The notes beneath the pieces are model-generated. The model searched no databases and was not told the origin of the DNA. It was given only the letters and a program-made list of their open reading frames with translations. From Candidatus Latescibacterota bacterium (GTDB taxonomy: Bacteria; Latescibacterota; UBA2968; UBA8231): a DNA stretch of 64,000 bases. The stretch is taken from positions 320,001 to 384,000 of the forward strand of contig CBDCSU010000005.1 in NCBI GenBank assembly GCA_965221775.1, read 5' to 3'. Of this stretch, positions 18,772 through 54,624 are shown piece after piece (position 1 is the first letter of the stretch; every line of letters starts with the position of its first letter). Position numbers and translations under genes: made by a program.

Positions 18772-18772
18772 C

Positions 18773-32701: not shown

Positions 32702-32704
32702 GGC

Positions 32705-33952: not shown

Positions 33953-33989
33953 GGTCGTTGAAGCACCCCTCTTCGAGAAGGCCGGGTCA

Positions 33990-35216
33990 TCAGCGGCCGG
34001 CCTGGTTGTAGAAGTCGATCTGCTGCTGGGCGATGGAGCCCTTCTGGGTGAGGGCGAAGACCACGAGGTTCACTCCGAGCTTGAGCTGGGGCTCGTTCTC
34101 CGTCTCCCGTTCCCAGATCGCTCCGTAGCCCTTGTCCGAGTAGACGGCCACCAGCCGGTCACGGAGGTAGATGCCCTCCAGCCAGTAGGAAGGCCGGCGG
34201 GTAGCGGCGTACTGGTTGGAGGCGTTGATCACCTCCCCGCCCAGCGGCGGGCCGCCGTCGAAATCGAAGAAGACGTGGTAGATGGGGTTGTCGTCCCGCA
34301 GCGGCACGAAGCGCGCGTCCCGCCCCAGGGCCTGCTTGAACATCGCCTTCATCGAGGCCTCGGCCGGGCCGTACTCCAGACGCGGAGCGTCGTTGTCCGC
34401 CAGCACGAAGCCGCCGTTGCGCAGGTACTTCCCCAGGTTGGCCGCCTCGTGCTTGGTCAGCTCGAAGGCCGACCGGGTGGTGATGTAGACGAAGGGGGCC
34501 TTGAAGAGGGCCTGGGAGTCGAGGTACATCTGCTCGTCCACCTTGGCCTCGATCCGGGTCCAGTTGTTGATCCAGCGGGCCAGCTGGAGCAGCGCCCGGG
34601 GCCGGGACGGCTCGAGGATCGTCCCCCAGGCGCGGGCCAGGTAGACGAAGCCGGTGACGTTGGTCTTGTCCGTGGGATCCTGGATCACCATTCCCTTGTA
34701 CCGGCCGGTGTTGATGGCCGACAGGTCCAGGAACTCCGCCTGCATGTCGATCCGTCTCTCGGGCTCCTTCATGCTGGCGATGCTGACCGCCTCGAAGCGG
34801 GGCATGGCCACCACGGCGTCGCCCAGGCCGGTGCCCGCGGCAACGGTGAACTCCGCGCTTCCCCCGGTCCGGCTCCACATGCGCGTGCCCACGGGCATGC
34901 CCGCCCTCGCCATGCGCCGTCCGCTCACCGTGGTGGTGGTGCGGTCGCCGCTCGAGCGGACCACGGGGGTGCCTTCGGGGACGGCCTCCTTCCGGAAGGC
35001 GAACTCGCGGGTCAGCTGCGGCTCGGGAAGGAAGAAGGGGGTCTTCTCCTCGTCCCACTCGATGCGGGCCACCACCTCCTCCTCTTCCTCCTCCCGCGGC
35101 ACCAGGTAGAGGAAGAGCACCAGGGCGTGAAGCGCCGCCGAGGCCGCCAGGCCGGCATGGAAGAGGCGGCGATGGCGGGACAGGACCCGCAGGGACCCGC
35201 TCTGTCGAGGACTCAC
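33990..35216 (-). CDS. DUF4159-domain protein with N-terminal TM anchor
   Basis: SAALHAL TM (TonB-like SxxxH), poly-Glu, PFVYIT, LGKYLRNGGFVLAD, PIYHVFFDF, KLGVNLVVFALT. Confidence 0.75.
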   Translation of the reverse strand: MSPRQSGSLRVLSRHRRLFHAGLAASAALHALVLFLYLVPREEEEEEVVARIEWDEEKTPFFLPEPQLTREFAFRKEAVPEGTPVVRSSGDRTTTTVSGRRMARAGMPVGTRMWSRTGGSAEFTVAAGTGLGDAVVAMPRFEAVSIASMKEPERRIDMQAEFLDLSAINTGRYKGMVIQDPTDKTNVTGFVYLARAWGTILEPSRPRALLQLARWINNWTRIEAKVDEQMYLDSQALFKAPFVYITTRSAFELTKHEAANLGKYLRNGGFVLADNDAPRLEYGPAEASMKAMFKQALGRDARFVPLRDDNPIYHVFFDFDGGPPLGGEVINASNQYAATRRPSYWLEGIYLRDRLVAVYSDKGYGAIWERETENEPQLKLGVNLVVFALTQKGSIAQQQIDFYNQAGR

Positions 35217-38200: not shown

Positions 38201-38527
38201 GTGCGCATTCCCGACCTGGTACCGGGCCACCTCCTGCAGCGGCGCCGTGATCTGGCCGACGGTCACCTCCACGTCCCGCATCTGCAGGAAACGGCTCTGG
38301 CTCCGGATGATGCGCCGATAGCCCTCGATCGCCTGGTCGTAGGCTCCCGAGGCGTAGAACTTCTGCGCGTCGGCGAAGGTCGCCTGCATCTCCGGGGCCG
38401 TGGGCACCGACCGGGTGACGGCGATCATCGCCGTCAGGCCTACCAGGGTGATCAACGCGACCATGGTCCGTTCCCTCCGACCGGGCGCGGTCGGTACGCG
38501 CCCCGCCTCGGCTTCCTCCGTCGACAC
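35213..38527 (-). CDS. Large TPR-repeat protein (YbgF/BamD-like repeats), N-terminally anchored
   Basis: Many TPR units (AMYDVGWAHY, ALFQIGEGHF, ARYYLGYAHF, ALFRLAESRY, ALYNIAW). Confidence 0.85.
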   Translation of the reverse strand: MSTEEAEAGRVPTAPGRRERTMVALITLVGLTAMIAVTRSVPTAPEMQATFADAQKFYASGAYDQAIEGYRRIIRSQSRFLQMRDVEVTVGQITAPLQEVARYQVGNAHFKSAEEALASAARSRDPARRSRYQDRARSLFGEAADAFVETEELSTVPALKALARSRAVACWYAIQDYERTIEGAGLLIERYPSSAYVEQAMYDVGWAHYDMEDYANSIAAFERLVERFPGGYRGSRALFQIGEGHFALENYREAIPFYQRLVDSQRIEEMSEREILRMKRQKIAGLVDETALDLAAKALIRIGECHEKTGQYAQAEESFQLVASRFAEEQRLAEEAYLRQADMHYRRGDFAAVVAVYHQAIEATGDVVQKARMQLLLANRYFETGHYEEAVREYEVYRTNYEAAAARAGLAVEGVALQVARAWFRVADRQPEEERLDYYRRAESELRATLAAYPGSPYDVELRFNLGLAIQLQDQQDKVGEALVFLGSVAEAPNAEGYRQSALFQIARIHHGRGDHALAAETYRTVIAELEDKPEEDVARFELGIVERDAGNQERALAELLAVRREAELFARSRLEAGQLLVQEGEHRQAVAVLQQGLEAKDRPESQALHYLLASASMQLGEQETALAHFAAVIGLGDPDLRERAAYSRGSLLFRMERYSEALEDLNREWTDPELSSAARRLLAAAWANLGEYDRAQEIYRRMALAAAGPLERAEHLLAEAEIANRQGRYAEASAACEEIIGLDLKEGPLPEERPYHLREKAWFLQAESAVRIEEFERAFDRADAGLRAFPGGFYAADLLFLRGLAALQTDRADLAAASFIRMLAEDPGHPNAGYARYYLGYAHFNEARFSRAIPYFAGVVDQYPDLDVAADALFRLAESRYNSGAYGEARQTYRQVIRRFPETGLAEEALYNIAWCLLNEAPAEPSAEHRAAVRQAMEEYLTRYPAGRHLATARYTLAEMSYNAGDYGRAYELFQGLRADFPESEAARAAEGVLQEVQEAVAFREYNGAMEAFNRALAEDDRDLVRQVIGPLEAVWRQYPMTSSGLAAKMNVGVCFQQLGEWQKAVDAFSDVITQGEQGNDRVTPRMMEFCERRRHTIERKHL

Positions 38528-38540: not shown

Positions 38541-41351
38541 TCATTCGTCGAATCCCAGGATGACCCGCAGGAAGGCGGAGGCGATGTCGAGATCCTCCCT
38601 CTGCCGGGCGGAATCGCCGTACTCGCGCCGGGTCCACTTCACCCCCAGGTTGGTGGCGATGTTGTACCCGAAGTAGGGAGACCGGTTCGTCAGCTGCACC
38701 ACCCGAACGACCTCCTCGTAGCTGTCGCGGCCATCGGCCAGGTCCTCCTTGCGCAGGGGCAGGCCCGGCAGCCCCTGGGTGCCGAGCCACAGGTGGGTGC
38801 GCGGCGTGATGTGGTAGGTGGCCTTGAGGATCGGTATGAAGGTCCACTCGTTGGCCAGGTCCACGATCAGGCTCTCCCGGGTCCTTCGCAGCACCAGTCC
38901 CTTGGCCTGGGCGATCACCTGCCAGCGGTCCGCCAGCTCCCTCACGTACTCGGCCCGGGCCACCATCGTCAGCCGGGTGATCGTGTCGGCCGCCTGGTCA
39001 CTGCCGTCGGAGAGGGTTGCCTCCTGCTGCTCGTTGACCGCATAGCGCAGGTTGCCGCCGAGACGCAGACCGCGGCCGGCCTTGAGGTCGGCCTCGACGT
39101 AGTGCTGCCGGTCCAGGCTGTCGCGGTACTCCAGCTGATCCGTCAGCCGGGTGGGGGCGTAGGTGGGCCAGAACTCGTGCCCGCCCAGAACCTCACCGTA
39201 GGTGATGTAGTTGTCCATGATGTCGTCATGGACCCGCTGGAGGCGGGTTTCGGCCCAGGCCGAGCCCCACCGGGGGCTGTGGCGGCGAAGGGTCACCACG
39301 CCGTAGGTGCTCTCGTTGCGGGCGCCGCTGGCGATCCCCGCCGCCCGCAGCCGGCCCGCCGTGAGGCGAAACCCGCCGGGCAGATGGAGCGACCCGAAGA
39401 GGTGGTGCCCGCTCTGGTCCAGCTCGTAGGGGTAGTCCGAGTCCAGGTCGTCCTCGCGGTGGTCCGGGATGCCGTTGTTGTTGGCGTCCCGTCCATAGGC
39501 ATACTCCTCCGGCTCCACGTCGTACAGCAGGAACGCCTCCAGGTAGTCGGGCACCTGGTTGCCGTTGCGGTTGGTGTCTGGAATCCGGTCGTTGTCCCGG
39601 TCGTTGCCCGGGAACACCCCGTCCGGGTCGTAGGGGATCGTCGTGTAGTGAGGACTCGGCCGGTGGCCGTGGCCGATGTCGGGGTAGCGGTCGTCGTCGT
39701 CGTTGTCCTGCACGAAGCCGCTGTCGTACTCCTCGGCGATGGAGAACAGCTCCCCCCCCACCTCCACCCGGCCCCGGCGCCACCGTCCGTTCACGTAGTA
39801 CGCGCCGGCGTCGGTGCTGCTGCGCGCCCCGTTCCAGCGGCGGATGCCCCTCACCTCCCGGTCCTCGCGGTACCCCGGCCGGCCGTCGGGAAACTCCCGG
39901 AACTCCACGTTGCGGGCGTATTCCCAGCGCACCTCGGCGTCGCCCCACTCCCAGGCCCCGTTGAGACCCCACAGGGCCCGGCCCGTCCACTCCCCCAGGT
40001 CCAGGCGCACCCACTCCAGGTTCGACATGTCCTGCACGTTGCCCGGGGAGCGGAGGACGGCGGTCACCCCCGGCGTCTCCTTCCTCTCGAGGTATCCGCT
40101 CGTGGAGACCAGGGTATTGCCGCCCACGCGGTAGTGGAACTCGTAGTTCTCCACCGCCGGGGCCGAGACGTAGAGGGGCAGCACCTCGACGCGGTAGTCG
40201 TTGCCCACCAGCGCCTCCACCTGCACCTGGCGGATGAACGGCTCCTGGCTCACGTCGAAGAAGGCGATGATCTGCTCGTGGCCGTCGGCCCGCAGTCCGG
40301 GCACGTCCGGCAGGGCCTCCACCCAGCGCAGCAGCTCCTCCAGGTTGACCTTGTCCGACACGTCCTCCCCCCGCAGGTGGTCGCGCAGGTAGAGGACGTC
40401 CGCGAAGCGCGTGCCCTGATCCAGGTAGACCGCCCGCCGGAACTGGCCGGAGAGTCTGTTCGTCGTGCCCACCGCGGTGGGATTCTGGCCGTTGATGCGA
40501 GCCAGGAAGGGCCGCAGGTCCGGGCGCTCCTCGCCGTTGACCTTCAGACGCACCTCCGCGACCACGGCGCCGGCCTGCAGGTCCTCCGGCGAATCGTCGG
40601 AGAGCCGCACCAGGTAGCCCACCGGCAGCACCTGCTCGGCCTGCAGCCCGCCGCGCAGCACGAAGCTCTCCTGCTCGGCGTCGAAGATGTGGAAGTTCAC
40701 CCCCGTCGCCCCCAGGGTCAGCGCCCCCAGCTCGACATCGCCGTGGGCCCCCAGAAGCATCGCCGAACTCCGGATCTCCTCGGCGGAGTCCCAGTGGTGC
40801 CAGGTGGGACCGCCGCCGTAGCGGCTGTCGGCGAAAGGCCCGGTGTACCGCTGCCCGATGACGGCCACACGGGTATTGCCCACCTGGCTGTCGAGGCGGA
40901 TGCCGTCGTAGCCCGGCAGGGCCAGGGTCAGCGGCGTGAACAGCGTGCGGATCTCCTCCCCGTAGATCAGGCTCGCCGCCCACCGCGCGTGCGACTCCCG
41001 CGCCACCAGGTTGCGCTCGAAACGCCGGAAACGGGGGAGGGTGCGGAAGGACTTGGGCAAGGCCGACGTCGTCGACGACCGGGTCTCCCGCCACTCGTAC
41101 ACGTCGTAGCCCTGAATCAGGAAGTTGCCCAGGGGGCCGTAGTAGTTGCGCCGCGAGAACCGGGTGAACTCCGGCAGCGTGTAGTCCTCGAAACCGTAGT
41201 TGAGGTAGGAGGGATCCGACCGGTAGAGGAAGGAACGGCCGGAGACGTCCTGGGCGAACCCCAGATGCGGGTCCTCCGCCCCCACCCGACCCGGCCCCCC
41301 CCAGGCGGGCATGAAGACCAGAGTCCAGACCGCGAGCCTCATCCGTCTCAT
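38541..41351 (-). CDS. Uncharacterised ~940-aa putative outer-membrane protein, paralogue A
   Basis: Signal peptide; FTPLTL, GIRLD, GVFPGNDRDNDRIPD...NNNG core; amphipathic C-terminal strands. Confidence 0.8.
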   Translation of the reverse strand: MRRMRLAVWTLVFMPAWGGPGRVGAEDPHLGFAQDVSGRSFLYRSDPSYLNYGFEDYTLPEFTRFSRRNYYGPLGNFLIQGYDVYEWRETRSSTTSALPKSFRTLPRFRRFERNLVARESHARWAASLIYGEEIRTLFTPLTLALPGYDGIRLDSQVGNTRVAVIGQRYTGPFADSRYGGGPTWHHWDSAEEIRSSAMLLGAHGDVELGALTLGATGVNFHIFDAEQESFVLRGGLQAEQVLPVGYLVRLSDDSPEDLQAGAVVAEVRLKVNGEERPDLRPFLARINGQNPTAVGTTNRLSGQFRRAVYLDQGTRFADVLYLRDHLRGEDVSDKVNLEELLRWVEALPDVPGLRADGHEQIIAFFDVSQEPFIRQVQVEALVGNDYRVEVLPLYVSAPAVENYEFHYRVGGNTLVSTSGYLERKETPGVTAVLRSPGNVQDMSNLEWVRLDLGEWTGRALWGLNGAWEWGDAEVRWEYARNVEFREFPDGRPGYREDREVRGIRRWNGARSSTDAGAYYVNGRWRRGRVEVGGELFSIAEEYDSGFVQDNDDDDRYPDIGHGHRPSPHYTTIPYDPDGVFPGNDRDNDRIPDTNRNGNQVPDYLEAFLLYDVEPEEYAYGRDANNNGIPDHREDDLDSDYPYELDQSGHHLFGSLHLPGGFRLTAGRLRAAGIASGARNESTYGVVTLRRHSPRWGSAWAETRLQRVHDDIMDNYITYGEVLGGHEFWPTYAPTRLTDQLEYRDSLDRQHYVEADLKAGRGLRLGGNLRYAVNEQQEATLSDGSDQAADTITRLTMVARAEYVRELADRWQVIAQAKGLVLRRTRESLIVDLANEWTFIPILKATYHITPRTHLWLGTQGLPGLPLRKEDLADGRDSYEEVVRVVQLTNRSPYFGYNIATNLGVKWTRREYGDSARQREDLDIASAFLRVILGFDE
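38548..41252 (-). repeat. ~2.7-kb inverted repeat, copy 1 (partner 51913-54620)
   Basis: Direct comparison: identity starts at CAGGACGTCTCCGGCCG just after the signal peptides and runs to CTGGGATTCGA. Confidence 0.9.
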
Positions 41352-44062: not shown

Positions 44063-44064
44063 GG

Positions 44065-46893
44065 CTACAGGATCCTCGCCTGGATGAAGAACTCGCTGAG
44101 CCGCTGGGTCCGCCGGCTCGGCAGGTTGACGAACTCCGAGCGGCTGGAGCGGAAGCCGAGATTCGTGCTCACGTCGTAGCCGGTGTAGTTGCTCAGGTTC
44201 TGGATGAGGACGATCCAGTGGCGCGCGTCGAAGTCCCTCGACGCCGCCTCGGCATCGCGGAACCGGTGGGCCCACGGCAGTCCCTGCACGCCCGCGCGGA
44301 GGGTTGTGTGCTCACTCAGGGCATAGTCGGCCCTGAGAATGGGGATGATCTCGTGGCTCTCCAGGGGCATGACGAGATCCTCGGGCGCCGACCGCCGCCG
44401 CAGGGCGAGCTTCACCATCGGGCTCAGGGTCAGCCCGCCCCTGACAAAGGCGTAGTCCGCTTTGCTCACGAGGCTCCAATCGAGGATGTCGTCTCCCAAC
44501 CCGGGCCGGCTGTCCCTGCGGTTGTTCCACTCGACCTTGGCTGCCTGGATGACGTTGAGCCCCTCGATGCCGGTGTAATGCCCCTTTGCGAAGAGGGTGT
44601 TCACGAGGCTGTTCTCCATCAGCATCAGATCGGGCCGCGGTCGAATGGCCACGTTGACCTGGGTCTGGGGCTCGATCACCGCCTCGTACAGTGGATTGGC
44701 TATGTCGTCGCGAACACGCTTGAGGCGCCAGCGGGCGATGAATCGGCCCGCTTCGCTCCCCTCCAACGTGTAGCCCAGCTCGCCGTAGGTCACCTCGTTC
44801 CGGCCCGCCGCCGCTCGCTGCCGAACCCCGTACCGCCCGAGACGCAGCGCTGCTTTCTCGAAGGGCTGGGCCGAGGCAAAGCCGTGGTAGCCCCGGCTGT
44901 CCAGGTCGTAGGGGAGGTCCGGCTTGTTGTCGTTCTCGCGCACGTCGACGACGCCGTTGTTGTTGAAGTCCTCCCCGTACACGAAGTCGTCCGGCTCGAC
45001 GTAGTACATGAGGAAGGGCTCGAGATAGTCCGGGAACTGGTTGCGGTTGACGTTGGTGTCCACCACCCCGTCCTCGTCCTGGTCCAGGCCCGGGAATACC
45101 CCGTGCCCTCCGCCCAGACCAAACTCGCCGGCCGCATCGGGCCGGATGGCGTCCACGTCGATTCCCGAGGCGTTGGCATAGGCGATGTAGACGGGGTCCA
45201 GAGGGTCCCAGTGCTCCACCTTGTCCGGCCACTCGTCCCCGTCGTCGTTGTCCTCCACCAAGTCCCACCCCAGGACGGCCTGCTGGCCTTCGGACCACAC
45301 GGGCAACGAGACCTGGTAGGTGGGAGGGACGTCGAAGAGCTCCAACCCCACGTCCGCGAGGGACCCCTCCTGCAGGAGACGCACGTAGTACGCGCTCGTG
45401 GCGCGGCTGTCCCGGCGGCCTGCGAAGGGGAAGCGGGCGTGCTGGACGTTGCTGATGTACTCCGCCTCGAGGTTGGCGCCGCCGATCTTCGCCTCCACCG
45501 TGCTGCCGAACTGGACGAGGCCCGTGGGGAAGGCGTAGTCGACGGTGACCCAGCCCATGTTCGACCCGTCCTGCACGTTGCCGGGCGCCCGCTTGACGTT
45601 GTGCCAGTCGCTCCAGAGCGAGGTGCCGCCACCGAAGAAGCCGTAGGCGGCGCCCACGTCGAGGCTGTAGTCTCCGGCCACCTGCACCCGGAACTGCAGG
45701 CTCTGGGGATCGCCGGGTATCTCGTAGCGCAGTACCAGCAGGTCCGTGCCGCCCACCTCAAGCGGAAAGGGCCCGTCGAGGGGGATGCCCTCCCTGGCGA
45801 AGAGTCCCGTGCGCTCGACGAAGATCCGGTCGGCATTGAAGATCCGGGGTGCCCACGCTCCGTCCCGGCGAATGTGGGGAACTTCACTCACCTCCACGAC
45901 TTGGGGGATCAGCTTCACCTCGGGCTCCGCGTCCACCCGCTGCCGGTCGACGTACAGCTCCACCGCGAACAGATCGACACCGTCTCCGTCCCCGGGCGAA
46001 TCGTCGCTGATGACCAGGTAGAAGGACGACGTGCCGGTCAGGCGCGAAGGGACGTCCCCCCGAAGGCTCGTGTTCCGCCGGGACGCATCCTGCAGGTGGA
46101 GGTTCACGTAGGAGGCCCCGAAGGTCAGGATGTCGCCGAACTGGCTGCTCCAGTGGCCTCCGAAGAGGTAGTGGGTGAAGTGTCGCGACCCCGTCAGCGG
46201 CCGGGGCACCCGGGAGGAGATCAGGGAGAAGCTGTTGCGGTGGGAGGACGCATCCCAGCGGAGCCCCTCGAGGCGGGACAGGTTCAGGGTCAGTGGAGTG
46301 AACCGGCCGTCCAGGAGGTCGCCGATCATGAACCGGGTGGACCAGCCGCCGAAGGCGTCGCGGAGGATCACCATGTTGCGGAACTGGCCCAGACCCCAAC
46401 CGGGAACCCTGCTGCTGCGCGCGGGGTCCAGGGTGCCGTACTCCTCGATCCGCAGGATCTCCACCCCGTCGACCAAGTAGGAGCCGAAGGGATCGTAGGT
46501 GGGGCGCTCCGGACGGAATCCGTAGTCCCGGTAGCTGAGGAAACTGTAGTTCTCGTAGCGCTCGTCCCAGAGGGGACGCAGCTCCCGGTTCAGGAAATCC
46601 TGCTGTCCCGACCAGTAGTCCTCGGGGGAGCGCTGTGCCAGGCAGGGTGCGGCCAGGCTGCCTGCCAGCAACCACACGGCAAGACCCGCCGCCCGGCGGC
46701 GCCGTGTCCGGCCAGCGGCGCCGGACGGGCCACCGGCGCGGCGGCCTCGGGCGATCGGGTGACCCGCATGATCCTCAAACCGATGGAAGGCGGGACGTTG
46801 CTCGACCGGGGGGCCGACCTCCAGTACAGGCGCGGCCCCTTCGGGCCCATCACCCGTCCCGTTCGTCCTCTCGGAGGCCTCGTCGGTTGCCAA
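44065..46893 (-). CDS. Uncharacterised ~900-aa putative outer-membrane protein, paralogue D (start uncertain)
   Basis: Signal-like RRRRAAGLAVWLLAGSLAAPCLA; FTPLTL, GLRWD, GVFPGLDQDEDG, NNNG. Confidence 0.8.
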   Translation of the reverse strand: MATDEASERTNGTGDGPEGAAPVLEVGPPVEQRPAFHRFEDHAGHPIARGRRAGGPSGAAGRTRRRRAAGLAVWLLAGSLAAPCLAQRSPEDYWSGQQDFLNRELRPLWDERYENYSFLSYRDYGFRPERPTYDPFGSYLVDGVEILRIEEYGTLDPARSSRVPGWGLGQFRNMVILRDAFGGWSTRFMIGDLLDGRFTPLTLNLSRLEGLRWDASSHRNSFSLISSRVPRPLTGSRHFTHYLFGGHWSSQFGDILTFGASYVNLHLQDASRRNTSLRGDVPSRLTGTSSFYLVISDDSPGDGDGVDLFAVELYVDRQRVDAEPEVKLIPQVVEVSEVPHIRRDGAWAPRIFNADRIFVERTGLFAREGIPLDGPFPLEVGGTDLLVLRYEIPGDPQSLQFRVQVAGDYSLDVGAAYGFFGGGTSLWSDWHNVKRAPGNVQDGSNMGWVTVDYAFPTGLVQFGSTVEAKIGGANLEAEYISNVQHARFPFAGRRDSRATSAYYVRLLQEGSLADVGLELFDVPPTYQVSLPVWSEGQQAVLGWDLVEDNDDGDEWPDKVEHWDPLDPVYIAYANASGIDVDAIRPDAAGEFGLGGGHGVFPGLDQDEDGVVDTNVNRNQFPDYLEPFLMYYVEPDDFVYGEDFNNNGVVDVRENDNKPDLPYDLDSRGYHGFASAQPFEKAALRLGRYGVRQRAAAGRNEVTYGELGYTLEGSEAGRFIARWRLKRVRDDIANPLYEAVIEPQTQVNVAIRPRPDLMLMENSLVNTLFAKGHYTGIEGLNVIQAAKVEWNNRRDSRPGLGDDILDWSLVSKADYAFVRGGLTLSPMVKLALRRRSAPEDLVMPLESHEIIPILRADYALSEHTTLRAGVQGLPWAHRFRDAEAASRDFDARHWIVLIQNLSNYTGYDVSTNLGFRSSRSEFVNLPSRRTQRLSEFFIQARIL

Positions 46894-46920
46894 GTCAAGC
46901 CAGACAGGAAGCGAAGCTTC

Positions 46921-48987
46921 TCAGTAAGCCACCCCTACGACGCCGGTGGCGGTTTCGGTCCCGGCGTCGAGCTCCACCTGGACGCGGTAGAGGTAGTTGC
47001 CCGGCGGCACCAGCCGGCCTTCGTCGTCCCTGCCGTCCCAGTATCCGGGGACGATACCCCGTGCCCCGCTGACGAGGCGCAGGTAGACGCCGGCCGCCAG
47101 GGGGGACGGCTTCAGATCGCGCACCAGAGCGCCCCGGAGGTCGAAGATGCGCAGTCCCAGGTCGCGGGGCGTGTCTACCTTGCTGAGAATGAACTCGATG
47201 ACGGTGTCATCGTTGATGTCGTCACCGTTGGGTGTGAACACGGAGGGATTGGCGCGGACGTTCGACAAGGCGTCCTCGGGAGAGGTCGTCGGGACCACCG
47301 CCCAGGAGAAGGGCTCGCCCGTGCTCTCGTCCATACCGAGGCTCTCGGCCACGTTGACGGGGTTGTCCGACCCGGGGCTGAAGAGAAAGACGCGGAACTC
47401 GTGGCTGTTCGCGTGGGAGCGGGCCCGAAAGGGTATCTGCAGTTGGTCGATGTCGCGCACCGGCTCGGAGAAGACGAGCTCAAGCGCATCCTGCGTGGAG
47501 ATCCAGCTCTCCAGGATCCCCTGGAGCTGACCGTCGTCGACCAGTCGGGCCTCGCTGGGGACGGCGACGCGGAGCCGCTCGATCCCCGAGTCTTCGGGGG
47601 AAAAGGCCAGGTCCAGGGTGCACACGAAGAGGGTGTCGGCACCCATGGACACGCGGTTGGGCGAGATCCTGGAATGGGCGCCGGAAACGGCGATCTCCTC
47701 GGTCGTGTAGTCCAGCTCCAGGCTGTGCAATGCCGGCGTGCGCCGCTGGTCCCTGGACTCCAGGGCGACCCGGTATTGGAGCCAGGCTCCCGGCTCCGAG
47801 GCGGGGAACCAGACCTCTCCACTCGACAGAGGGGTGCTCCACCCCCGCTTGGGATCCTCGAAGTCCGACGGGGAATTCCCCGTCCGGAACTGGACGAAGA
47901 GATCCGTGCGCTCGGGGATCTCGGCATCCCAGCGCACGCGGCCGAAATTCTTGGCCTGGTCGGGCGCGCCCAGCGAGAGAGGATCGGAGAGGTATGTGCC
48001 CTCGTCCGTGTACCCGTCTCCGTAGACCTCCACCTCGGCCACCTTGGGAGGGCTCACGGAGTTGATGTCGACGATCACGACTCGCACGTACCGGGTCCAC
48101 ACCGGCGTAAAGCGCACCTCGGTCCAGTCGAACTTCTCGATATCGTGGATGACGCCCACCTCGGTCCAGCGGACCCGGTCGTCGCTGACCTGCACCGAGT
48201 AGCCCCTCAACGAATTCTCCTCCAGCTGGCCGGGATTGCTCCCCCTGGTGATGACGCGGACGCTGCTGACGTTGCGCCTGACCTGCAGATCCACACTGGC
48301 CGAGTAGTTGAGAGCAGAGGTGGGCGGGTCCCAGGAGGTGTTCAGCTTGCCGTCCACGACTTCCACACGGTTGCTCGGCTTGTCGAGGGCCAGGTTCTGG
48401 CCGCGAATCTGACTGAGAACCAGGCTTCCCTGCCGGGCGCCCACGTCGATCCCCGACGGGAACCCGGAGACGATCTCGATCTCCGGGTCGAGCAGATCCT
48501 GGATCCGGGCGCGCTCGACCGCCCCCTGCTGCACGGCCTGCCACGCCGGATCGTCCTCCGGATCGGCCGTCGTCCACTCGAGACCCTGCTGCTCGAAGGA
48601 GGTCCAGTACCACCCCTGCACCACCTGGTTCGTGGTCGTCTCGATCCGGTACTCGTCGGTGACCACCGCGGCGATGAGGCCGTTGCCGGCGCCGGCGCCG
48701 CGGTTGACGACCTTCACGGCGATGTCATTCCCCGCATTCCCGTCCTGCACCTGGACGGCATAGACCTGCATCCGGGTACCGAGAGAGTCCCCGCCGAGGA
48801 GCACGCCGTTGAAGTAGACCTCGTAGCTGTCCACGGCGGCCACGTGGAGCCTGGCCTCGAGAGCGGCGTCGGAAACGAAGTTGGAACGGAAGTAGGTGGT
48901 GCTACGCCACGAACTCTGCTCCCAGGTCTGCGCGGTGACCGCAGCCGTGCAGCAGAGCACGATGAGGGAGGTGAAGCGGATAGACAT
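46921..48987 (-). CDS. Secreted protein with a discoidin/F5-F8-like domain and an FTPNGD + FlgD-Ig C-terminal domain
   Basis: Signal peptide; NLALDKP...YSVQVSDD...TRYVRV...VAEVEVYG; NPSVFTPNGDDIND...WDGRDDEGRLVPPGNYLY. Confidence 0.8.
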   Translation of the reverse strand: MSIRFTSLIVLCCTAAVTAQTWEQSSWRSTTYFRSNFVSDAALEARLHVAAVDSYEVYFNGVLLGGDSLGTRMQVYAVQVQDGNAGNDIAVKVVNRGAGAGNGLIAAVVTDEYRIETTTNQVVQGWYWTSFEQQGLEWTTADPEDDPAWQAVQQGAVERARIQDLLDPEIEIVSGFPSGIDVGARQGSLVLSQIRGQNLALDKPSNRVEVVDGKLNTSWDPPTSALNYSASVDLQVRRNVSSVRVITRGSNPGQLEENSLRGYSVQVSDDRVRWTEVGVIHDIEKFDWTEVRFTPVWTRYVRVVIVDINSVSPPKVAEVEVYGDGYTDEGTYLSDPLSLGAPDQAKNFGRVRWDAEIPERTDLFVQFRTGNSPSDFEDPKRGWSTPLSSGEVWFPASEPGAWLQYRVALESRDQRRTPALHSLELDYTTEEIAVSGAHSRISPNRVSMGADTLFVCTLDLAFSPEDSGIERLRVAVPSEARLVDDGQLQGILESWISTQDALELVFSEPVRDIDQLQIPFRARSHANSHEFRVFLFSPGSDNPVNVAESLGMDESTGEPFSWAVVPTTSPEDALSNVRANPSVFTPNGDDINDDTVIEFILSKVDTPRDLGLRIFDLRGALVRDLKPSPLAAGVYLRLVSGARGIVPGYWDGRDDEGRLVPPGNYLYRVQVELDAGTETATGVVGVAY

Positions 48988-49008
48988 CAGGCGGTTTCCC
49001 TTGCCGAT

Positions 49009-49047
49009 AGAAACAAATGGGTGGCCGGCTTGCACCGGCCACCCATT
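49009..49047 (-). terminator. Intrinsic terminator/attenuator after the first gene of the envelope operon
   Basis: Perfect 13-bp stem AATGGGTGGCCGG/CCGGCCACCCATT (49016-49047), 6-nt loop, then TGTTTCT on the minus strand. Confidence 0.7.
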
Positions 49048-49090
49048 CCGAGTCAGGCTGCTCCCAAACAGGGACGCCCGCTGACCGCTT

Positions 49091-50938
49091 TTACTTGAGC
49101 AGAGTCACGCGCTTGCTCTCGGCAAAACTCCCCGCGACCATCCGCAGGACATAGACCCCGCTGCCAACCTTGACGCCCTGGTAGTCCGTGCCGTCCCAGG
49201 TGACGTGGTAGGAGCCGGAGTCCAGCACTTGATCCACCAGCCTGGCCACTTCCTGGCCGGCCACGTTGTGCACGGTCAGTGTCACCGACTCGTTGATCTC
49301 GGGAACGGCGATGCGGACGGTCGTCTCGGGGTTGAAGGGGTTCGGGAACGCATCACCCAGTGCGAAAGCGCCGGGCGTGGCCCCACCTTCCAACTCCGTG
49401 ACGTCCGTGGTCAGGCCGTCGCCCACCTTCGCCCGTGCGATGTCCATGGGGAAGTGTGCCAGGTACGGACCGGCTCCCACGCCGATGTAGAGACCGTCGG
49501 CCTCGTTGTCGTTGTCCATCAGCATGGCGATGCCGCCGAGTGAGCCCGGGGGCATGTGGATTCCCACGTTGAGCTTGAACAGACCGAAGCCGTCGGGTCC
49601 CATGACCGTGGCCCATTCAGGCGCCTCCCAGCCGCCGATGAGGCTGATACCCCAGCGGGTGGCCAGTATGCTGATCGGAATGTTCGAGGGGATCCCCAGG
49701 GCCTCCCTCTCCTCCCTGGTGTAGAAGTCCAGGTAGAAGTCGCCGTTCTGGTTTTTCCAGACCAGGTTGAGGTCCTTGTCGGTCTTGGTCGGACCCGCTC
49801 CTTCCCGGCCGAGGTAACTGGTCCCGTAGTAGCCCGTGTCGTCGACGTCGAACCCCGCAACTGCCTTGAAGTTCCTCGGGGCGCCTTCGTCGTTGAAGAC
49901 CTGGGGGAAGTAGTCCAGGAAGGAGAGGACCTCCACCAGCTCTCCGGTGGCGCGGTCGAATATCTGCACCGCCGGACCCGGCGAACCGTAGGGCTCCACG
50001 TGGTCGGCGACGGTGGCGTAGAGCATGCCGTCGTCGGCCACCCAGGGATGGTGGCGGGCGTTGGCCACCATGGTGGTGATGCCGCGGACCTCCATGGCGA
50101 TGTAGCCGCCGTCGGCGTTCTCCCAGCTCTCGTCCAGCAGCGCCGTGCCCGCCTCGCGATCGATGATCGCCCGGTACAGGCCGCCCGGCGGGTTCTGGAA
50201 GCGGATGACGTAGGCCACGCCATCTTCCGACGGGTCCATCTGCAGATAGCCGACATCCTTCCAGTCATTCCCGGTCTCGCCCGGGACCGCGTTGACCCAC
50301 GGGATGGCGAAGGTCTCGAAGGCCTCGGGGTTGGCGAGCAGGTCGGTGCCCATCTCGCTCACCCTGATGTTCCAGACGCCCTCGATCTGCTGGGGGAACC
50401 AGATCTCCGGAGGACTCGCCTGGTCGTTGACCACCGAGTTCTGCCAAGGGGCCATGGTACCGCCCGCGTAGGTGGGCTTGGAGTCGACGTCGATGGCGAA
50501 CAGGTAGGTCCTGTAGGTGCCGGAGCCGACGGTCGCTCCCGTGTAATCCGTGCCGTCCCAGGTGATGGTGTTCGAGCCCGCGTCGAACCGGTCTCCGGCA
50601 CTGATGTAGACGAGGGTATCCAGACCGGCGGCGCGGATCAGGCTCTGTTCGATGCCTCCCACCCCGAAAGGCTCTCCGCCGTACTGGGGATTGGCATCGA
50701 GGGTGTACACGGCAAGCCAGACCATGGCCGAGGGAACGCCTTCGATGGTGAAGGGGATCTCGACCGCGGAACCGTCAAAGGTGTGGTTCACGTCCTGCGT
50801 CGAGAGCTTCAGCACCGTCGGCGCGCCGCCCTTCCAGTGGACGTCAAAGCCCTGCCAGTCGGGGTTGGACTGGCCGAAGTCGTTTGCCGCGGCCGTCCCG
50901 AGGAGTCCGGAACACAACAGCAGGATCGCCTTCTTCAT
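49091..50938 (-). CDS. Secreted protein with N- and C-terminal FlgD-Ig domains (T9SS type A-like CTD)
   Basis: AAGGAG RBS, MKKAILLL signal; TITWDGTDYTG and C-terminal AFPNPFNPET...VTWDGTDYQG...SGVY...KRVTLLK. Confidence 0.85.
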   Translation of the reverse strand: MKKAILLLCSGLLGTAAANDFGQSNPDWQGFDVHWKGGAPTVLKLSTQDVNHTFDGSAVEIPFTIEGVPSAMVWLAVYTLDANPQYGGEPFGVGGIEQSLIRAAGLDTLVYISAGDRFDAGSNTITWDGTDYTGATVGSGTYRTYLFAIDVDSKPTYAGGTMAPWQNSVVNDQASPPEIWFPQQIEGVWNIRVSEMGTDLLANPEAFETFAIPWVNAVPGETGNDWKDVGYLQMDPSEDGVAYVIRFQNPPGGLYRAIIDREAGTALLDESWENADGGYIAMEVRGITTMVANARHHPWVADDGMLYATVADHVEPYGSPGPAVQIFDRATGELVEVLSFLDYFPQVFNDEGAPRNFKAVAGFDVDDTGYYGTSYLGREGAGPTKTDKDLNLVWKNQNGDFYLDFYTREEREALGIPSNIPISILATRWGISLIGGWEAPEWATVMGPDGFGLFKLNVGIHMPPGSLGGIAMLMDNDNEADGLYIGVGAGPYLAHFPMDIARAKVGDGLTTDVTELEGGATPGAFALGDAFPNPFNPETTVRIAVPEINESVTLTVHNVAGQEVARLVDQVLDSGSYHVTWDGTDYQGVKVGSGVYVLRMVAGSFAESKRVTLLK

Positions 50939-50987
50939 GGGATACTCCTTTTCTCCGCCCCGGACTCCCGTCTGGCCCGGTGTGGCG

Positions 50988-51072
50988 TGAGTTCGTGGCC
51001 TGCCTCGTCCTGCCGGGTCTCGGCAGGGCCCAAGAGGCCACAATGATCGGCAACTCAACCCCTTTGGGGGTT
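50988..51072 (-). promoter_or_regulatory. Structured 5' leader upstream of the envelope operon
   Basis: Nested complementary pairs TGAGTT/AACTCA, GTGGCCT/AGGCCAC and CCTGCCG/CGGCAGG, plus hairpin AACCCC-TTTG-GGGGTT. Confidence 0.5.
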
Positions 51073-51094
51073 CGTCCATTCGTTCACTAGAAGA

Positions 51095-51123
51095 CTGTTA
51101 CTGCTCTTTCGGATGGAAGTCAA
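51095..51123 (-). promoter_or_regulatory. Putative sigma70 promoter of the envelope operon
   Basis: TTGACT-17 nt-TAACAG in a locally AT-rich stretch; the -10 match is weak. Confidence 0.35.
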
Positions 51124-51195
51124 GGAAAAAGCACGGCCCCCCACGCCCCTTCACCCCGGGGAGAGAGGAGCTATTGGTTGCCACTTACGGACCGC

Positions 51196-51672
51196 TTATG
51201 GGCCGCTCTGGGCCTCCTCCTCGCCGGCCTTGATCCTCACGGGGTCGGACCCGACCGAGATGAACCGTGTCCGCGGGTTGAGGGTGAGCTTGTCGTACGG
51301 CCCGTAGGGCCGCCAGCGCTTGGCCCCCGGAGTCGTCATCGTCTGGGGCTCGGCGTCGGGCCGTTCCGCGCCGATCATCCGAAGGGCCTCGTCCTCGTCG
51401 AAGGGGTCCATCTCTTCGAACCTGTAGCTGACATAGCTCGCCTCCCCCTCCTTAATTACCACGAAGACCCGGACACCCGTGCCAAGCACATCCTGCCACA
51501 GCAGATGCCCGAACCTCCCCTCCGAGGCCTGGACCCTCTGCCAGGGGTCTCCCCAGCGCTCGATGAGATCGGCCTCGCTCCTGCCGAGAACCTCATGAAC
51601 GTCCAGCGGCGGCGGCTCCCGGGAGCAGGACGCCCCGAGAACCAGGACTGAGATGACCAGCGCGGCTCTCAT
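51196..51672 (-). CDS. Small lipoprotein, hypothetical
   Basis: MRAALVISVLVLGAS-C; only this 3' end of ORF 51196-54126 looks real, the rest is antisense to paralogue B. Confidence 0.7.
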   Translation of the reverse strand: MRAALVISVLVLGASCSREPPPLDVHEVLGRSEADLIERWGDPWQRVQASEGRFGHLLWQDVLGTGVRVFVVIKEGEASYVSYRFEEMDPFDEDEALRMIGAERPDAEPQTMTTPGAKRWRPYGPYDKLTLNPRTRFISVGSDPVRIKAGEEEAQSGP

Positions 51673-51739
51673 TCGGATCCGATCCTTGTCTCGTGCTCGG
51701 TTGAAGCCCGGCACGTCCCGGCCCCGGGCAGGGAGCCGC

Positions 51740-51767
51740 AAAATAGAGGGGGGGCTTTCCCGGTCAA
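51740..51767 (-). promoter_or_regulatory. Putative sigma70 promoter for the 51672 lipoprotein
   Basis: TTGACC-16 nt-TATTTT; the spacer contains a C7 run. Confidence 0.5.
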
Positions 51768-51819
51768 GCAGCCGAATCCGACGGCTTGCCGATCGGTGGT
51801 GATTTCCTCTCCGGCAGGG

Positions 51820-54624
51820 ATGGTGCGTATGCGGCCCTGGATCTGGATGCTCCTCCTCTTGCTGACGGGCGGGTTCCGGGCGCTGGCGTCCGAGCCGGTC
51901 CTGGGGCTCCCGCAGGACGTCTCCGGCCGCTCCTTCCTCTACCGGTCGGATCCCTCCTACCTCAACTACGGTTTCGAGGACTACACGCTGCCGGAGTTCA
52001 CCCGGTTCTCGCGGCGCAACTACTACGGCCCCCTGGGCAACTTCCTGATCCAGGGCTACGACGTGTACGAGTGGCGGGAGACCCGGGCCTCGACGGCCAC
52101 GGCCTGGCACAAGTCGCTGCGCACCCTCCCCCGCTTCGGGCGTTTCGAGCGCAACCTGGTGGCGCGGGAGTCGCACGCGCGGTGGGCGGCGAGCCTGATC
52201 TACGGGGAGGAGATCCGCACGCTGTTCACGCCGCTGACCCTGGCCCTGCCGGGCTACGACGGCATCCGCCTCGACAGCCAGGTGGGCAACACGCGGGTGG
52301 CCGTCATCGGACAGCGGTACGTGGGTCACTTCACCGCCGGCCAGTACGGCGAAGGGCCCGTCTGGACCAACTGGGACTTCACCGAGCACATGCGCAGCTC
52401 GGCGATGCTCCTCGGGGCCCACGGCGACGTCGAGCTGGGGGCGCTGACCCTGGGGGCGACGGGGGTGAACTTCCACATCTTCGACGCCGAGCAGGAGAGC
52501 TTCGTGCTGCGCGGCGGGCTGCAGGCCGAGCAGGTGCTGCCGGTGGGCTACCTGGTGCGGCTCTCCGACGATTCGCCGGAGGACCTGCAGGCCGGCGCCG
52601 TGGTCGCGGAGGTGCGTCTGAAGGTCAACGGCGAGGAGCGCCCGGACCTGCGGCCCTTCCTGGCCCGCATCAACGGCCAGAATCCCACCGCGGTGGGATC
52701 CACCAGCCGGCTCACGGGCCAGTTCCGGCGGGTGGCCTACCTGGACCGGGGCACGCGCTTCGCAGACGTGCTCTACCTGCGCGATCACCTGCGGGGGGAG
52801 GACGTGTCGGACAAGGTCAACCTGGAGGAGTTGCTGCGCTGGGTGGAGGCCCTGCCGGACGTGCCCGGGCTGCGGGCCGACGGCCACGAGCAGATCATCG
52901 CCTTCTTCGACGTGAGCCAGGAGCCGTTCATCCGCCAGGTGCAGGTGGAGGCGCTGGTGGGCAACGACTACCGCGTCGAGGTGCTGCCCCTCTACGTCTC
53001 GGCCCCGGCGGTGGAGAACTACGAGTTCCACTACCGCGTGGGCGGCAATTCCCTGGCGCCGGGGCAAGGCTACTTCGTGGAAAAGGAGACGCCGGGGGTG
53101 ACCGCCGCACGCCGCTCCCCGGGCAACGTTCAGGACATGTCGAACCTGGAGTGGGTGCGCCTGGATCTGGGGGAGTGGACGGGCCGGGCCCTGTGGGGTC
53201 TCAACGGGGCCTGGGAGTGGGGCGACGCCGAGGTGCGCTGGGAATACGCCCGCAGCGTGGAGTACCGCGAGTTTCCCGACGGCCGGCCGGGGTACCGCGA
53301 GGACCGGGAACTCAGGGGCATCCGCCGCTGGAACGGGGCGCGCAGCAGCACCGACGCCGGCGCGTACTACGTGAACGGACGGTGGCGCCGGGGCCGGGTG
53401 GAGGTGGGGGGGGAGCTGTTCTCCATCGCCGAGGAGTACGACAGCGGCTTCGTGCAGGACAACGACGACGACGACCGCTATCCCGACAGCGGCCCCGGAC
53501 ACCGCCCCATGAGTGCGGACACGGGCACCCCCTTCGACCCGGACGGGGTGTTCCCGGGCAACGACCGGGACAACGACCGGATTCCGGACACCAACCGCAA
53601 CGGCAACCGGGTGCCCGATTACCTGGAGGCGTTCCTGCTGTACGACGTGGAGCCGCTGGCCTATGCCTATGGACGGGACGCCAACAACAACGGCATCCCC
53701 GACCACCGCGAGGACGACCTGGACTCGGACTACCCCTACGAGGTGGACCAGCGCGGGCACCACGCCTTCGGGACGCTGCATCTGCCCGGCGGGTTTCGCC
53801 TCACGGCGGGCCGGCTGCGGGCGGCGGGGATCGCCAGCGGCGCCCGCAACGAGAGCACCTACGGCGTCGCCACCCTTCGCCGCCACAGTCACCGGTGGGG
53901 CTCGGTCCGGGCCGAGACCCGCCTCCGGCGGCTCCACGACGACATCGTCGACAACTACGTCGTCTTCGACGAGGTGTGGGGCCGCTATCCCAACCGGGAG
54001 CGGACCTATGCCCCCACCACGGTGCTGGATCTGCTTGAGTATCGCGACAGCCTGGACCGGCAGCACTACGTCGAAGCCGACCTCAGCCCCGCCCCCGGAC
54101 TGCGCCTCGGCGGCAACCTGCGCCATGCGCTCAACGAGCAGCGCGAGGCCACCCTGGCCGATGGCAGCGATCAGGCCGCCGACACGATCACCCGGCTGAC
54201 GATGGTGGCCCGGGCCGAGTATGTGTGGGAGCTGTCGGAGCGGTGGCGCGTGATCGCCCAGGCCAAGGCGCTGCGGCTGCGCCGGACTCGGGAGAGCCTG
54301 GCGGTGGACCTGGCCAACGAGTGGACTTTCGTGCCGATCCTGAAGACCTCATGTCACATCACGCCGCGCACCCACCTGTGGCTCGGCACCCAGGGGCTGC
54401 CGGGCCTGCCCCTGCGCAAGGAGGATCTGGCCGACGGCCGCGACAGCTACGAGGAGGTCGTTCGGGTGGTGCAGCTGACGAACTGGTCTCCCTACTTCGG
54501 GTACGAAATCGCCACCAACCTGGGGGTGAAGTGGAGCCGGCGCCAATACGGAGATCCCGCACGGGAGAGGGACGATCTCGACATCACCTCCGCCTTCCTG
54601 CGCGTCCTCCTGGGATTCGAATAG
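51820..54624 (+). CDS. Uncharacterised ~935-aa putative outer-membrane protein, paralogue B (near-identical to A)
   Basis: Its own signal peptide MRPWIWMLLLLL...ALA; mature sequence matches 38541-41351 except for short patches. Confidence 0.85.
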   Translation: MVRMRPWIWMLLLLLTGGFRALASEPVLGLPQDVSGRSFLYRSDPSYLNYGFEDYTLPEFTRFSRRNYYGPLGNFLIQGYDVYEWRETRASTATAWHKSLRTLPRFGRFERNLVARESHARWAASLIYGEEIRTLFTPLTLALPGYDGIRLDSQVGNTRVAVIGQRYVGHFTAGQYGEGPVWTNWDFTEHMRSSAMLLGAHGDVELGALTLGATGVNFHIFDAEQESFVLRGGLQAEQVLPVGYLVRLSDDSPEDLQAGAVVAEVRLKVNGEERPDLRPFLARINGQNPTAVGSTSRLTGQFRRVAYLDRGTRFADVLYLRDHLRGEDVSDKVNLEELLRWVEALPDVPGLRADGHEQIIAFFDVSQEPFIRQVQVEALVGNDYRVEVLPLYVSAPAVENYEFHYRVGGNSLAPGQGYFVEKETPGVTAARRSPGNVQDMSNLEWVRLDLGEWTGRALWGLNGAWEWGDAEVRWEYARSVEYREFPDGRPGYREDRELRGIRRWNGARSSTDAGAYYVNGRWRRGRVEVGGELFSIAEEYDSGFVQDNDDDDRYPDSGPGHRPMSADTGTPFDPDGVFPGNDRDNDRIPDTNRNGNRVPDYLEAFLLYDVEPLAYAYGRDANNNGIPDHREDDLDSDYPYEVDQRGHHAFGTLHLPGGFRLTAGRLRAAGIASGARNESTYGVATLRRHSHRWGSVRAETRLRRLHDDIVDNYVVFDEVWGRYPNRERTYAPTTVLDLLEYRDSLDRQHYVEADLSPAPGLRLGGNLRHALNEQREATLADGSDQAADTITRLTMVARAEYVWELSERWRVIAQAKALRLRRTRESLAVDLANEWTFVPILKTSCHITPRTHLWLGTQGLPGLPLRKEDLADGRDSYEEVVRVVQLTNWSPYFGYEIATNLGVKWSRRQYGDPARERDDLDITSAFLRVLLGFE
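51913..54620 (+). repeat. ~2.7-kb inverted repeat, copy 2 (partner 38548-41252)
   Basis: As for copy 1; a tract of over 200 nt is identical even at synonymous sites. Confidence 0.9.

Follow-up and report, generated by a model that had tools for sequence, protein, structure and literature searches.

Concerted evolution and two-form islands in an inverted pair of uncharacterised envelope-protein genes from a sponge-associated Latescibacterota bacterium

We analysed a 64,000-nt stretch of contig CBDCSU010000005.1 (positions 320,001 to 384,000 of the forward strand; hereafter, the window) from an uncultured, sponge-associated bacterium of the Latescibacterota. In it, a large and uncharacterised envelope-protein gene is present twice, in inverted orientation, with about 10.4 kb between the copies. 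Gene A (38541..41351, minus strand) encodes 936 aa and is the last of three family paralogues arranged in tandem in an operon on the minus strand; its start ATG overlaps the stop codon of the preceding gene (ATGA). Gene B (51796..54624, plus strand) is solitary and divergent from the operon. It encodes 942 aa when counted from a GTG, and its probable start is the ATG at 51829 (MRPWIWM...), matching the database gene calls. The annotated frame shows coding-type GC3 in both genes (0.88 in A and 0.92 in B).

The two proteins are identical at 808 of 933 aligned residues (86.6%), and the base identity of the genes is 90.4%. The inverted repeat consists of four blocks of 89-95% identity that cover A and B, and a single blastn alignment (2725 nt, 91.4%) spans its arms, 38548..41264 on the minus strand in A and 51901..54620 on the plus strand in B. 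Both arms are limited to the mature protein, and the signal peptides and flanks of the two genes are unrelated. Between 36 and 57 kb of the window, no further long repeats were found. A and B are the only close copies in the genome, where the next paralogues reach at most 39% identity in partial alignments.

Upstream of A lie N1 (41348..44275, minus strand), a distant paralogue of A with 30% identity over its full length, and N2 (44065..46893, minus strand), another with 27% identity. As listed, N2 begins within N1, with an overlap of 211 nt; N2 probably starts further downstream. These are preceded by a gene for an F5/8 type C domain protein with a C-terminal T9SS-type sorting domain (46921..49035, minus strand) and one for a T9SS type A sorting-domain protein with FlgD_ig and Por_Secre_tail domains (49091..51079, minus strand). 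A small conserved gene (51196..51672, minus strand), whose 158-aa product has an N-terminal signal and no family match, lies between the operon and B. Directly downstream of A is a gene for a 1104-aa TPR protein with YbgF/BamD-like repeats (35213..38527, minus strand).

A family gene follows a T9SS-sorted gene in the four other clusters examined in this genome as well. Outside this genome the link is partial: in a search with a seven-seed HMM, a T9SS-sorted gene precedes the family gene in 14 of 71 loci, compared with 4 of 71 on the opposite strand, while a further family member lies upstream in 29 and neither is found in 33. A promoter scan of 50900-51950 returned one minus-strand site and none for B, and Rfam and tRNA scans of the window gave no match. 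One public RNA run (X19) contains a 152-nt contig on 53315-53466, plus one in the next gene. Since A and B are identical over 53315-53466, this contig is no evidence of expression of either copy.

The family is unannotated and multi-copy in Latescibacterota, with 1138 representatives at 50% identity; this genome alone has about 20 copies. N-terminal hydrophobic signals are readable in both A and B. In a crude scan for alternating hydrophobicity, 335 of 936 residues were strand-like, and these were dense at residues 440-540 and 650-935. Judged from such crude sequence features, A and B are probably outer-membrane beta-barrels with an Asp/Asn-rich insert. Pfam and NCBIfam searches at E values up to 1 left A and B unmatched except for one chance-level NCBIfam match. 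Plug and TonB_dep_Rec domains, expected of a TonB-dependent or SusC-like receptor, are absent from both proteins, as is a T9SS C-terminal sorting domain. Searched against PDB sequences, the family profile returned nothing beyond a PDZ match at chance level (E 0.76). Membership in the SlpA C-terminal beta-barrel family (PF21620) was considered and rejected, as neither A, B nor anything else in the genome matched it. Weak matches occur in 13 of 36 family members at residues ~433-550, and the best of them (E 1.6e-6, 27.3 bits) falls below the gathering cut-off of 35 bits, which no family member reaches. The likeness to the SlpA_C barrel of Deinococcus and Thermus thus consists of sub-threshold matches, and we take it as a lead to the fold rather than as membership.

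Differences between A and B are strongly clustered. There are 232 in 2706 sites, with a variance-to-mean ratio of 4.4 in 30-nt bins, and between them lie five identical runs that are 119-236 nt long. The longest run in 10,000 shuffles was 162, short of the observed 236 nt, and when only third codon positions were considered, the longest run of 78 was reached in 44 of 10,000 shuffles. The clustering therefore exceeds chance. The initial annotation had described long near-identical tracts broken by six divergent patches. The patches and the peptides quoted for them, including a 1-aa indel in the sixth, were located where claimed. Near identity holds for approximately the first two thirds of the genes, and the description fails for the C-terminal 190-191 codons (B 54052..54621, plus strand; A 38544-39116), where the last 191 codons diverge fairly evenly in this genome (89% base identity, that is, ~11% diverged; dS 0.21).

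Patch 1 (p1) occupies B 52084-52119 (plus strand, as for all B positions below) and A 41046-41081, and p2 occupies B 52318-52395 and A 40770-40847. The third patch, p3 (B 52699-52749; A 40416-40466), is weakly divergent, with 11 of 17 residues identical, and has intermediate forms and frequent exchange. The remaining three are locus-fixed dimorphic islands: p4 (B 53047-53109; A 40056-40118), p5 (B 53485-53538; A 39627-39680), which lies within an Asp/Asn-rich repeat region, and p6 (B 53947-54051; A 39117-39218), a long segment flanked by two strand-like stretches. The signal peptides constitute a seventh divergent segment.

The suggestion that the patches are loop-like is borne out. They are variable, indel-prone segments throughout the family and lie between strand-like stretches: only 13 of 128 patch residues were strand-like, compared with the 335 of 936 overall. 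Both p2 and p4 contain clade-specific insertions, that of p4 being ~19 aa long. Among 54 distant homologues, patch entropy was 2.23 bits as opposed to 1.75 elsewhere, a value reached by 3 of 5000 random placements.

Within the close relatives of the pair, each patch exists in only two forms among 54 sequences. For p4-p6, trees cleanly separate the A copies from the B copies as two clades, and of the informative quartet sites 300 were of the paralogue type, 12 of the genome type and 5 of the cross type. Forty-three of the 48 paralogue-fixed sites fall in the bins of p4-p6. On contigs of at least 100 kb, the three islands were mutually concordant in 27 of 27 sequences, and their form matched the type of the signal peptide in all 25 that could be typed. 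Thus, p4-p6 have two forms, each of which keeps to one locus and is conserved between species. The first three patches also have two forms but are occasionally converted: of the same 27 sequences, 2 carry a swapped p1 form at the B locus and 2 a swapped p2 form at the A locus. Reassortment of patches, proposed in the initial annotation, was accordingly seen for p1-p3. Outgroups are A-like in some patches and B-like in others.

Each form of the islands is under strong purifying selection. In p4-p6, orthologues differ by a dN of 0.02-0.05 and a dS of ~0.29-0.30, giving a within-form omega of ~0.1 (about 0.07-0.16), and paralogues by a dN of 0.36 and a dS of 0.56. Fixed differences between the forms comprise 38 nonsynonymous and 4 synonymous sites, while 18 and 47, respectively, vary within forms. 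This McDonald-Kreitman-like contrast (odds ratio 24.8, p 6e-11) undercounts fixed synonymous sites, as such sites also vary within forms. On the internal branch separating the forms, parsimony gave an omega of ~1.4. Pairwise counting gave a between-form omega of 0.65-0.77, and positive selection is therefore not demonstrated.

These data bear on an arms race, in which the patches would be hypervariable loops facing phage or ligand, and the source of a diversified repertoire of receptors. Divergence within the pair is greatest in the patches, they fall in segments that vary family-wide, and the differences between their forms are mostly amino-acid changes, all as an arms race would have it. However, the 54 close relatives come from many assemblies and show two forms per patch, with within-form dN far below the dS of ~0.3, so the patches are not hypervariable. 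Nor do the two copies in this genome, each with one of two forms, make up a diversified repertoire. PHROGs and PADLOC families gave no match to A or B, and tblastn against phages and plasmids was likewise empty. We consider this explanation highly unlikely. A diversity-generating locus, either a DGR or cassette-based antigenic variation, was also considered and appears excluded, given two forms per patch in 54 sequences, no further close copies in the genome that could be donor cassettes, and no additional long repeat at 36-57 kb that could be a template.

The inverted pair is not confined to this genome. It is found, again ~10.4 kb apart, in genomes G001, G002 and G003 (G1 to G3 below; the genome of the window is G0), which represent three other species, and the flanks are collinear over 22.8 kb at ~90%. 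To judge from contigs of matching size, A-like and B-like proteins share one contig in at least 11 assemblies. The syntenic pair in four genomes, together with the A and B clades of p4-p6 and their dS of 0.56 versus 0.29-0.30 between orthologues, places the duplication before the species compared. It is older than the split of at least four species with ~90% base identity.

The history of the scaffold is different. At 71 sites A and B are the same in every genome and yet differ among genomes, and scaffold quartet sites numbered 334 of the genome type, 81 of the paralogue type and 15 of the cross type. Scaffold dS within a genome averaged 0.123 (0.080 in this genome), as opposed to 0.205-0.221 both for orthologues and for A against B between genomes. 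Base identity of the A and B scaffolds was 96.9% in G0, 94.9% in G1 and 97.1% in G3, whereas orthologues ranged from 91 to 95.5%. In trees, A of G0 paired with B of G0 (support 0.988 and 88), and the two copies of G3 likewise paired with each other (0.998 and 95). The exception was G2, where the scaffold identity of 91.2% was not above that of orthologues, indicating no net homogenisation; the G1/G2 quartet gave 27 genome-type and 36 paralogue-type sites. The C-terminal third carried a mixed genome and paralogue signal (46 genome-type, 64 paralogue-type and 7 cross sites). Repeated non-reciprocal recombination between the inverted copies has thus kept the scaffold alike within each genome, that is, the scaffold has undergone concerted evolution. 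The 71 shared species-specific sites and the quartet counts support the earlier proposal of a scaffold homogenised by gene conversion around patches that remain divergent. A scaffold that groups by genome and patches that group by paralogue point to an old duplication kept alike by conversion, with conversion-resistant islands.

The near identity of the scaffold in this genome could in principle reflect a recent duplication whose loops then diverged fast, without any gene conversion. This is almost certainly wrong: the pair and both patch forms are common to four species, the patch dS of 0.56 is about twice that between species, and species-specific scaffold changes are found in both copies.

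Identical tracts between divergent segments might also arise in assembly, if two more divergent genes, or strain variants, had been collapsed or joined into chimeras. Consistent with this, 9 of the 23 sequences on contigs shorter than 100 kb that were typed at all of p4-p6 are mosaic there, and in the public runs X1, X3 and X10 the Logan contigs break off at the edges of the identical tracts. As a result of these breaks, the Logan contigs can neither phase the patches nor reveal an inversion, and their depths are not copy numbers. A candidate joint 51300/51901 on 'opposite strands' was set aside, since its best explanation is the far end of a contig of 10,756 nt running from B's to A's first shared bases. 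Against an artefact, the same layout and patch linkage are found on the 1.5-Mb contig of this genome and on two chromosomes, each a single record, of 4.79 and 5.50 Mb, and the 27 sequences on contigs of at least 100 kb agree. Moreover, the longest identical tract is just 236 nt, and species-specific substitutions common to A and B occur in four separate assemblies, which is not expected from the collapse of reads. We regard an assembly origin of the mosaic as extremely unlikely.

A further alternative is that the islands are passive: they would be too diverged to form heteroduplexes, conversion tracts would stop there, and A and B would be functionally equivalent. The patches are 60-75% base-identical, well under the tolerance of recombination, and the conversion of the less divergent p3, as well as of p1 and p2, fits a divergence threshold. 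On the other hand, tracts anchored at both ends in the identical flanks (119-236 nt) are able to take a patch with them, which did occur for p1 and p2, and p4-p6 nevertheless remained concordant in every sequence on the long contigs. Purifying selection on each form, and an excess of nonsynonymous over synonymous fixed differences, would not be expected from neutral drift of equivalent loops. Passive islands between equivalent genes thus appear unlikely.

We favour, with a probability of roughly 0.75, an old inverted duplication of a secreted envelope-protein gene with gene conversion of the scaffold and loop islands held in two forms. The duplication would have covered the mature-protein part of the large gene, and conversion would then have repeatedly homogenised the scaffold within each genome. 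The islands may persist because their conversion is selected against, and their own divergence may also block heteroduplex formation; the data would fit selection against conversion as well as a purely mechanical block by mismatches. The islands are presumably surface loops that give A and B different binding specificities on a common scaffold. The shared scaffold could allow both proteins to use the same partners, namely N1 and N2, the TPR protein and the operon's proteins with a T9SS sorting domain, with A probably made together with the operon and B from its own promoter.

In a more speculative extension, which we consider unlikely, Latescibacterota would have an undescribed envelope machine in which A and B serve as interchangeable subunits that set specificity. 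Its other parts would include surface proteins delivered by the T9SS, a TPR protein as scaffold and a protein resembling TonB, and its giant paralogous barrels would number three. The p4-p6 loop sets would represent two ligand specificities maintained by selection across species. What the operon displays would change slowly and combinatorially as the inverted copies recombine, through conversion of p1-p3 and perhaps also through inversion of the 10.4-kb stretch that separates them.

In an uncultured phylum, the pair illustrates partial concerted evolution cleanly and across species. Conversion erases the history of the scaffold, and three short islands retain a record of the old duplication. 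In a family with neither annotation nor structure, the islands also mark the residues most likely to set specificity. For annotators and binners, short-read assemblies of such pairs call for caution, as mosaics on short contigs may be chimeric.

The closest parallels are found in Helicobacter pylori. As described in PMC2795765, homA/homB and babA/babB are two-locus outer-membrane paralogues of ~90% identity, in which intragenomic recombination drives the concerted evolution of part of the gene and a short middle region exists in a few conserved allelic forms that can move between loci. The likeness to A and B lies in partial concerted evolution and in conserved alternative forms at two loci. 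Unlike the H. pylori genes, A and B belong to an unrelated protein family and phylum and have no Pfam match. Where the H. pylori genes have one middle segment, A and B have several small islands, three of which stay strictly with their locus from species to species, and the copies are inverted, 10.4 kb apart, with one inside an operon. Their host is an uncultured sponge-associated bacterium, whereas H. pylori is a pathogen under immune pressure. Islands of divergence under interlocus gene conversion, with a homogenised scaffold and short divergent regions read as selection for different function, are treated in PMC3728101 and PMC3924837; these are eukaryotic cases and models, unlike the bacterial pair. 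Paralogues more alike within a genome than orthologues, over long times, were described in a survey of concerted evolution that reports 26 genes, mostly members of core pathways (PMC6053082). The evolutionary pattern is therefore already known and no new mechanism is involved; what is new is the protein family that shows it.

In an ORF and composition scan, the longest coding-type frames at their respective places were gene A (38541-41351, minus strand; 936 aa) and gene B (51796-54624, plus strand; 942 aa). Their alignment spans 933 codons, 808 of which specify identical residues (86.6%), with a base identity of 90.4%. At the DNA level, positions 41264-38548 of A matched positions 51901-54620 of B over 2,725 nt at 91.4%. 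The likeness sets in about 30 codons inside each gene and extends to the final codons; the signal peptides and promoters are unrelated, as are the flanking regions. The two genes differ at 232 of 2,706 sites and share five identical runs of 119 to 236 nt. This mosaic of identical and divergent tracts is not due to chance: the 236-nt run was matched in none of 10,000 shuffles, and the run of 78 observed for third positions only was equalled in 44 of 10,000. The final 191 codons follow another pattern, with an even divergence of about 11%. Re-alignment reproduced the positions and peptides originally reported for six short divergent patches (p1 to p6). A genome search for more copies, as proposed in the initial annotation, yielded only A and B as close relatives; the genome contains 20 open frames of the family, and the others were at most 39% identical to A, in partial alignments only.

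The pair is an old inverted duplication. It recurs, with the copies again inverted and about 10.4 kb apart, in three other species (two single-record chromosomes titled Candidatus Latescibacterota and one short-read MAG titled Gemmatimonadaceae), and the flanking 22.8 kb is collinear at about 90% among the pair-bearing genomes. Nine other species of the genus were searched: four contained matches, one of them merely a 2.6-kb B-like fragment, and five, with completeness of 76 to 96%, had no match at E 1e-150. The fragment (L017; G004:C353, 2,569 nt) carries one in-frame TAG and an A-form p2, both of which may be assembly or sequencing errors, since the short-read contig is very short. In a relative from another genus (G023:C1:582621-593579), four family genes lie in tandem, two adjacent ones being about 51% identical to A; this side-by-side arrangement may be of the pre-inversion type.

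The common scaffold has undergone recurrent conversion. Among the 2,775 ungapped sites of a codon alignment of A and B from the four genomes, 71 were identical between A and B inside every genome and different among genomes, and 48 were fixed differences separating every A from every B. When quartets were counted for the six genome pairs, the scaffold had 334 genome-type, 81 paralogue-type, and 15 cross sites, as opposed to 12, 300, and 5, respectively, in p4-p6, and 46, 64, and 7 in the C-terminal third. The proposal that gene conversion homogenises the scaffold while the patches stay divergent was thereby borne out, with one species, G2, as an exception. Scaffold dS averaged 0.123 within genomes (0.080 in the genome studied here), compared with 0.205-0.220 for orthologues and 0.221 for A versus B across genomes. 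Scaffold trees joined A with B of this genome (FastTree support, 0.988; IQ-TREE ultrafast bootstrap, 88) and A with B of G3 (0.998 and 95), whereas in trees of p4-p6 the A and B genes formed separate clades on long branches. Counting against concerted evolution, the G2 scaffold displayed no net homogenisation, with an A/B identity of 91.2% and one identical tract of 386 nt, and the quartet of the closely related G1 and G2 contained 27 genome-type versus 36 paralogue-type sites.

The patches had been described as hypervariable, which they are not. Typing of 54 close relatives drawn from protein clusters revealed only two forms per patch, plus minor variants. A nine-sequence alignment showed p4, p5, and p6 to be nearly invariant among the four A genes in their A form, and among all B genes in their B form. 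Among the 27 sequences located on contigs of at least 100 kb, A and B of the window included, p4, p5, and p6 were mutually concordant in all 27. The other three patches did reassort, as had been suspected: p1 was swapped in 2 of 27 sequences and p2 likewise in 2 of 27, and p3 was often swapped (9/15 at the A locus and 4/12 at the B locus). Patches p4-p6 form three constrained islands, each with two forms tied to their loci, and p1-p3 are converted now and then. Of the 23 sequences on contigs shorter than 100 kb that were typed at all three islands, 9 were p4-p6 mosaics, which may reflect either genuine recombination or chimeric assembly. Since A and B lie head to head in opposite orientation, a crossover between them would flip the intervening 10.4-kb segment and swap the 3' ends of the two genes. 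Such a rearrangement was found on no long contig, and the signal-peptide type matched the p4-p6 form in 25 of 25 typeable sequences.

The islands are constrained inside each form. Between orthologues, dN and dS for p4-p6 were 0.021 and 0.30 in A and 0.046 and 0.29 in B; between forms, they were 0.36 and 0.56. Fixed differences between forms comprised 38 nonsynonymous and 4 synonymous sites, versus 18 and 47 variable inside a form (odds ratio, 24.8; p = 6e-11), although this contrast undercounts fixed synonymous sites, which vary within forms too. Parsimony, which biases dS downwards, assigned the between-form branch a dN of 0.28, a dS of 0.20, and an omega of about 1.4 (12 for p4, 0.84 for p5, and 1.13 for p6). 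Because of these two biases, we claim only a split biased towards amino-acid change, with purifying selection afterwards; positive selection is not proven.

Neither A nor B matched Pfam, PHROGs, or PADLOC, an NCBIfam search returned a chance-level hit only, no solved structure was related in sequence to the family, and a literature search found no published description of it in Latescibacterota. Among 1.84 billion proteins, the family profile retrieved 1,138 representatives at E 1e-3 and 373 at 1e-30, and the matching genome records were titled nearly all as Latescibacterota or "Gemmatimonad*" MAGs. In a phylum sample, 36 of 61 genomes contained the family (1 to 27 matches apiece); it was not found in three taxonomic families searched (0/16, 0/3, and 0/5). 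This genome has an expansion to about 20 copies (for example, at G000:C6:11301-19847, C5:161582-168818, and C6:251878-257330), several of which lie in tandem sets of two or three.

Both proteins have an N-terminal hydrophobic signal, Asp/Asn-rich repeats at about residues 548-645, which presumably resemble thrombospondin-type-3-like calcium sites though without a Pfam match, and numerous segments of alternating hydrophobicity, concentrated at 440-540 and 650-935. Together with the matches below threshold that 13 of 36 family members gave to the SlpA giant-barrel model, these features lead us to infer an outer-membrane beta-barrel. The patches coincide with family-wide variable, indel-carrying segments (entropy, 2.23 bits versus 1.75; equalled by 3 of 5,000 random placements), and p2 and p4 are clade-specific insertions. 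Strand-like stretches cover 13 of 128 patch residues versus 335 of 936 residues overall. As a rule, the C-terminal strand of a barrel terminates in the periplasm, with the long loops pointing outward, and p6 would accordingly be an external loop.

B stands alone, divergent from the operon of A. A closes a run of three tandem paralogues, after N1 (41348-44275, minus strand; 30% identical to A) and N2 (44065-46893, minus strand; 27%), whose listed starts overlap by 211 nt (44065-44275); the true N1 start is probably further downstream. Upstream of the three lie genes for a small secreted protein and for two proteins bearing T9SS sorting domains at the C terminus, including one that also has an F5/8 type C domain. 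The operon tail downstream of A (31862-38527, minus strand) encodes a TPR protein (1,104 aa), a DUF4159 protein, an AgmX/PglI protein whose domain is C-terminal and TonB-like, and an FGE-sulfatase domain protein of 279 aa that weakly resembles GldK/GldJ. With the putative barrels, these proteins may form a trans-envelope assembly. The gene for the small secreted protein (51196-51672, minus strand; 158 aa, GC3 0.86) lies only about 125-155 nt from B and encodes an N-terminal hydrophobic signal ending in LGASC; conservation in three relatives is about 90%, and it had no Pfam family match. It is absent as a separate gene from the list of ORFs of 100 aa or more. Elsewhere in the window (16699-23137, minus strand), an Omp85/POTRA gene adjoins a 1,454-aa TamB-domain gene as a TamA/TamB-type pair, which is ordinary in diderms.

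Matches above the cut-offs identified SprA and two PorU in the genome, one PorU being followed directly by a PorV-like gene below its cut-off (G000:C5:943124-947459; 148 versus 250 bits). About 48 additional sorting-domain tails are also encoded. No GldK match exceeded its cut-off in this genome, so the T9SS of the lineage may be divergent in ring components. Four other family clusters examined here adjoin genes for sorting-domain proteins, and a TPR gene comes after one. Another three-gene set of the family comes after two T9SS-sorted genes, as in the operon of A. Outside this genome, the link was partial (14/71 loci versus 4/71 on the opposite strand).

In the mechanism we propose, the shared scaffold would serve shared partners, and the p4-p6 islands would be exposed loops fixing specificity. 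Conversion tracts overwriting them would be purged by selection and also impeded by mismatches, with A presumably expressed with its operon and B independently. The general idea of divergence islands persisting under conversion has been discussed in published work (PMC3728101, PMC3924837). The closest known cases are homA/homB and babA/babB of H. pylori, outer-membrane pairs in which, according to PMC2795765, one segment evolves in concert and a middle segment occurs as a few conserved alleles that can sit at either locus.
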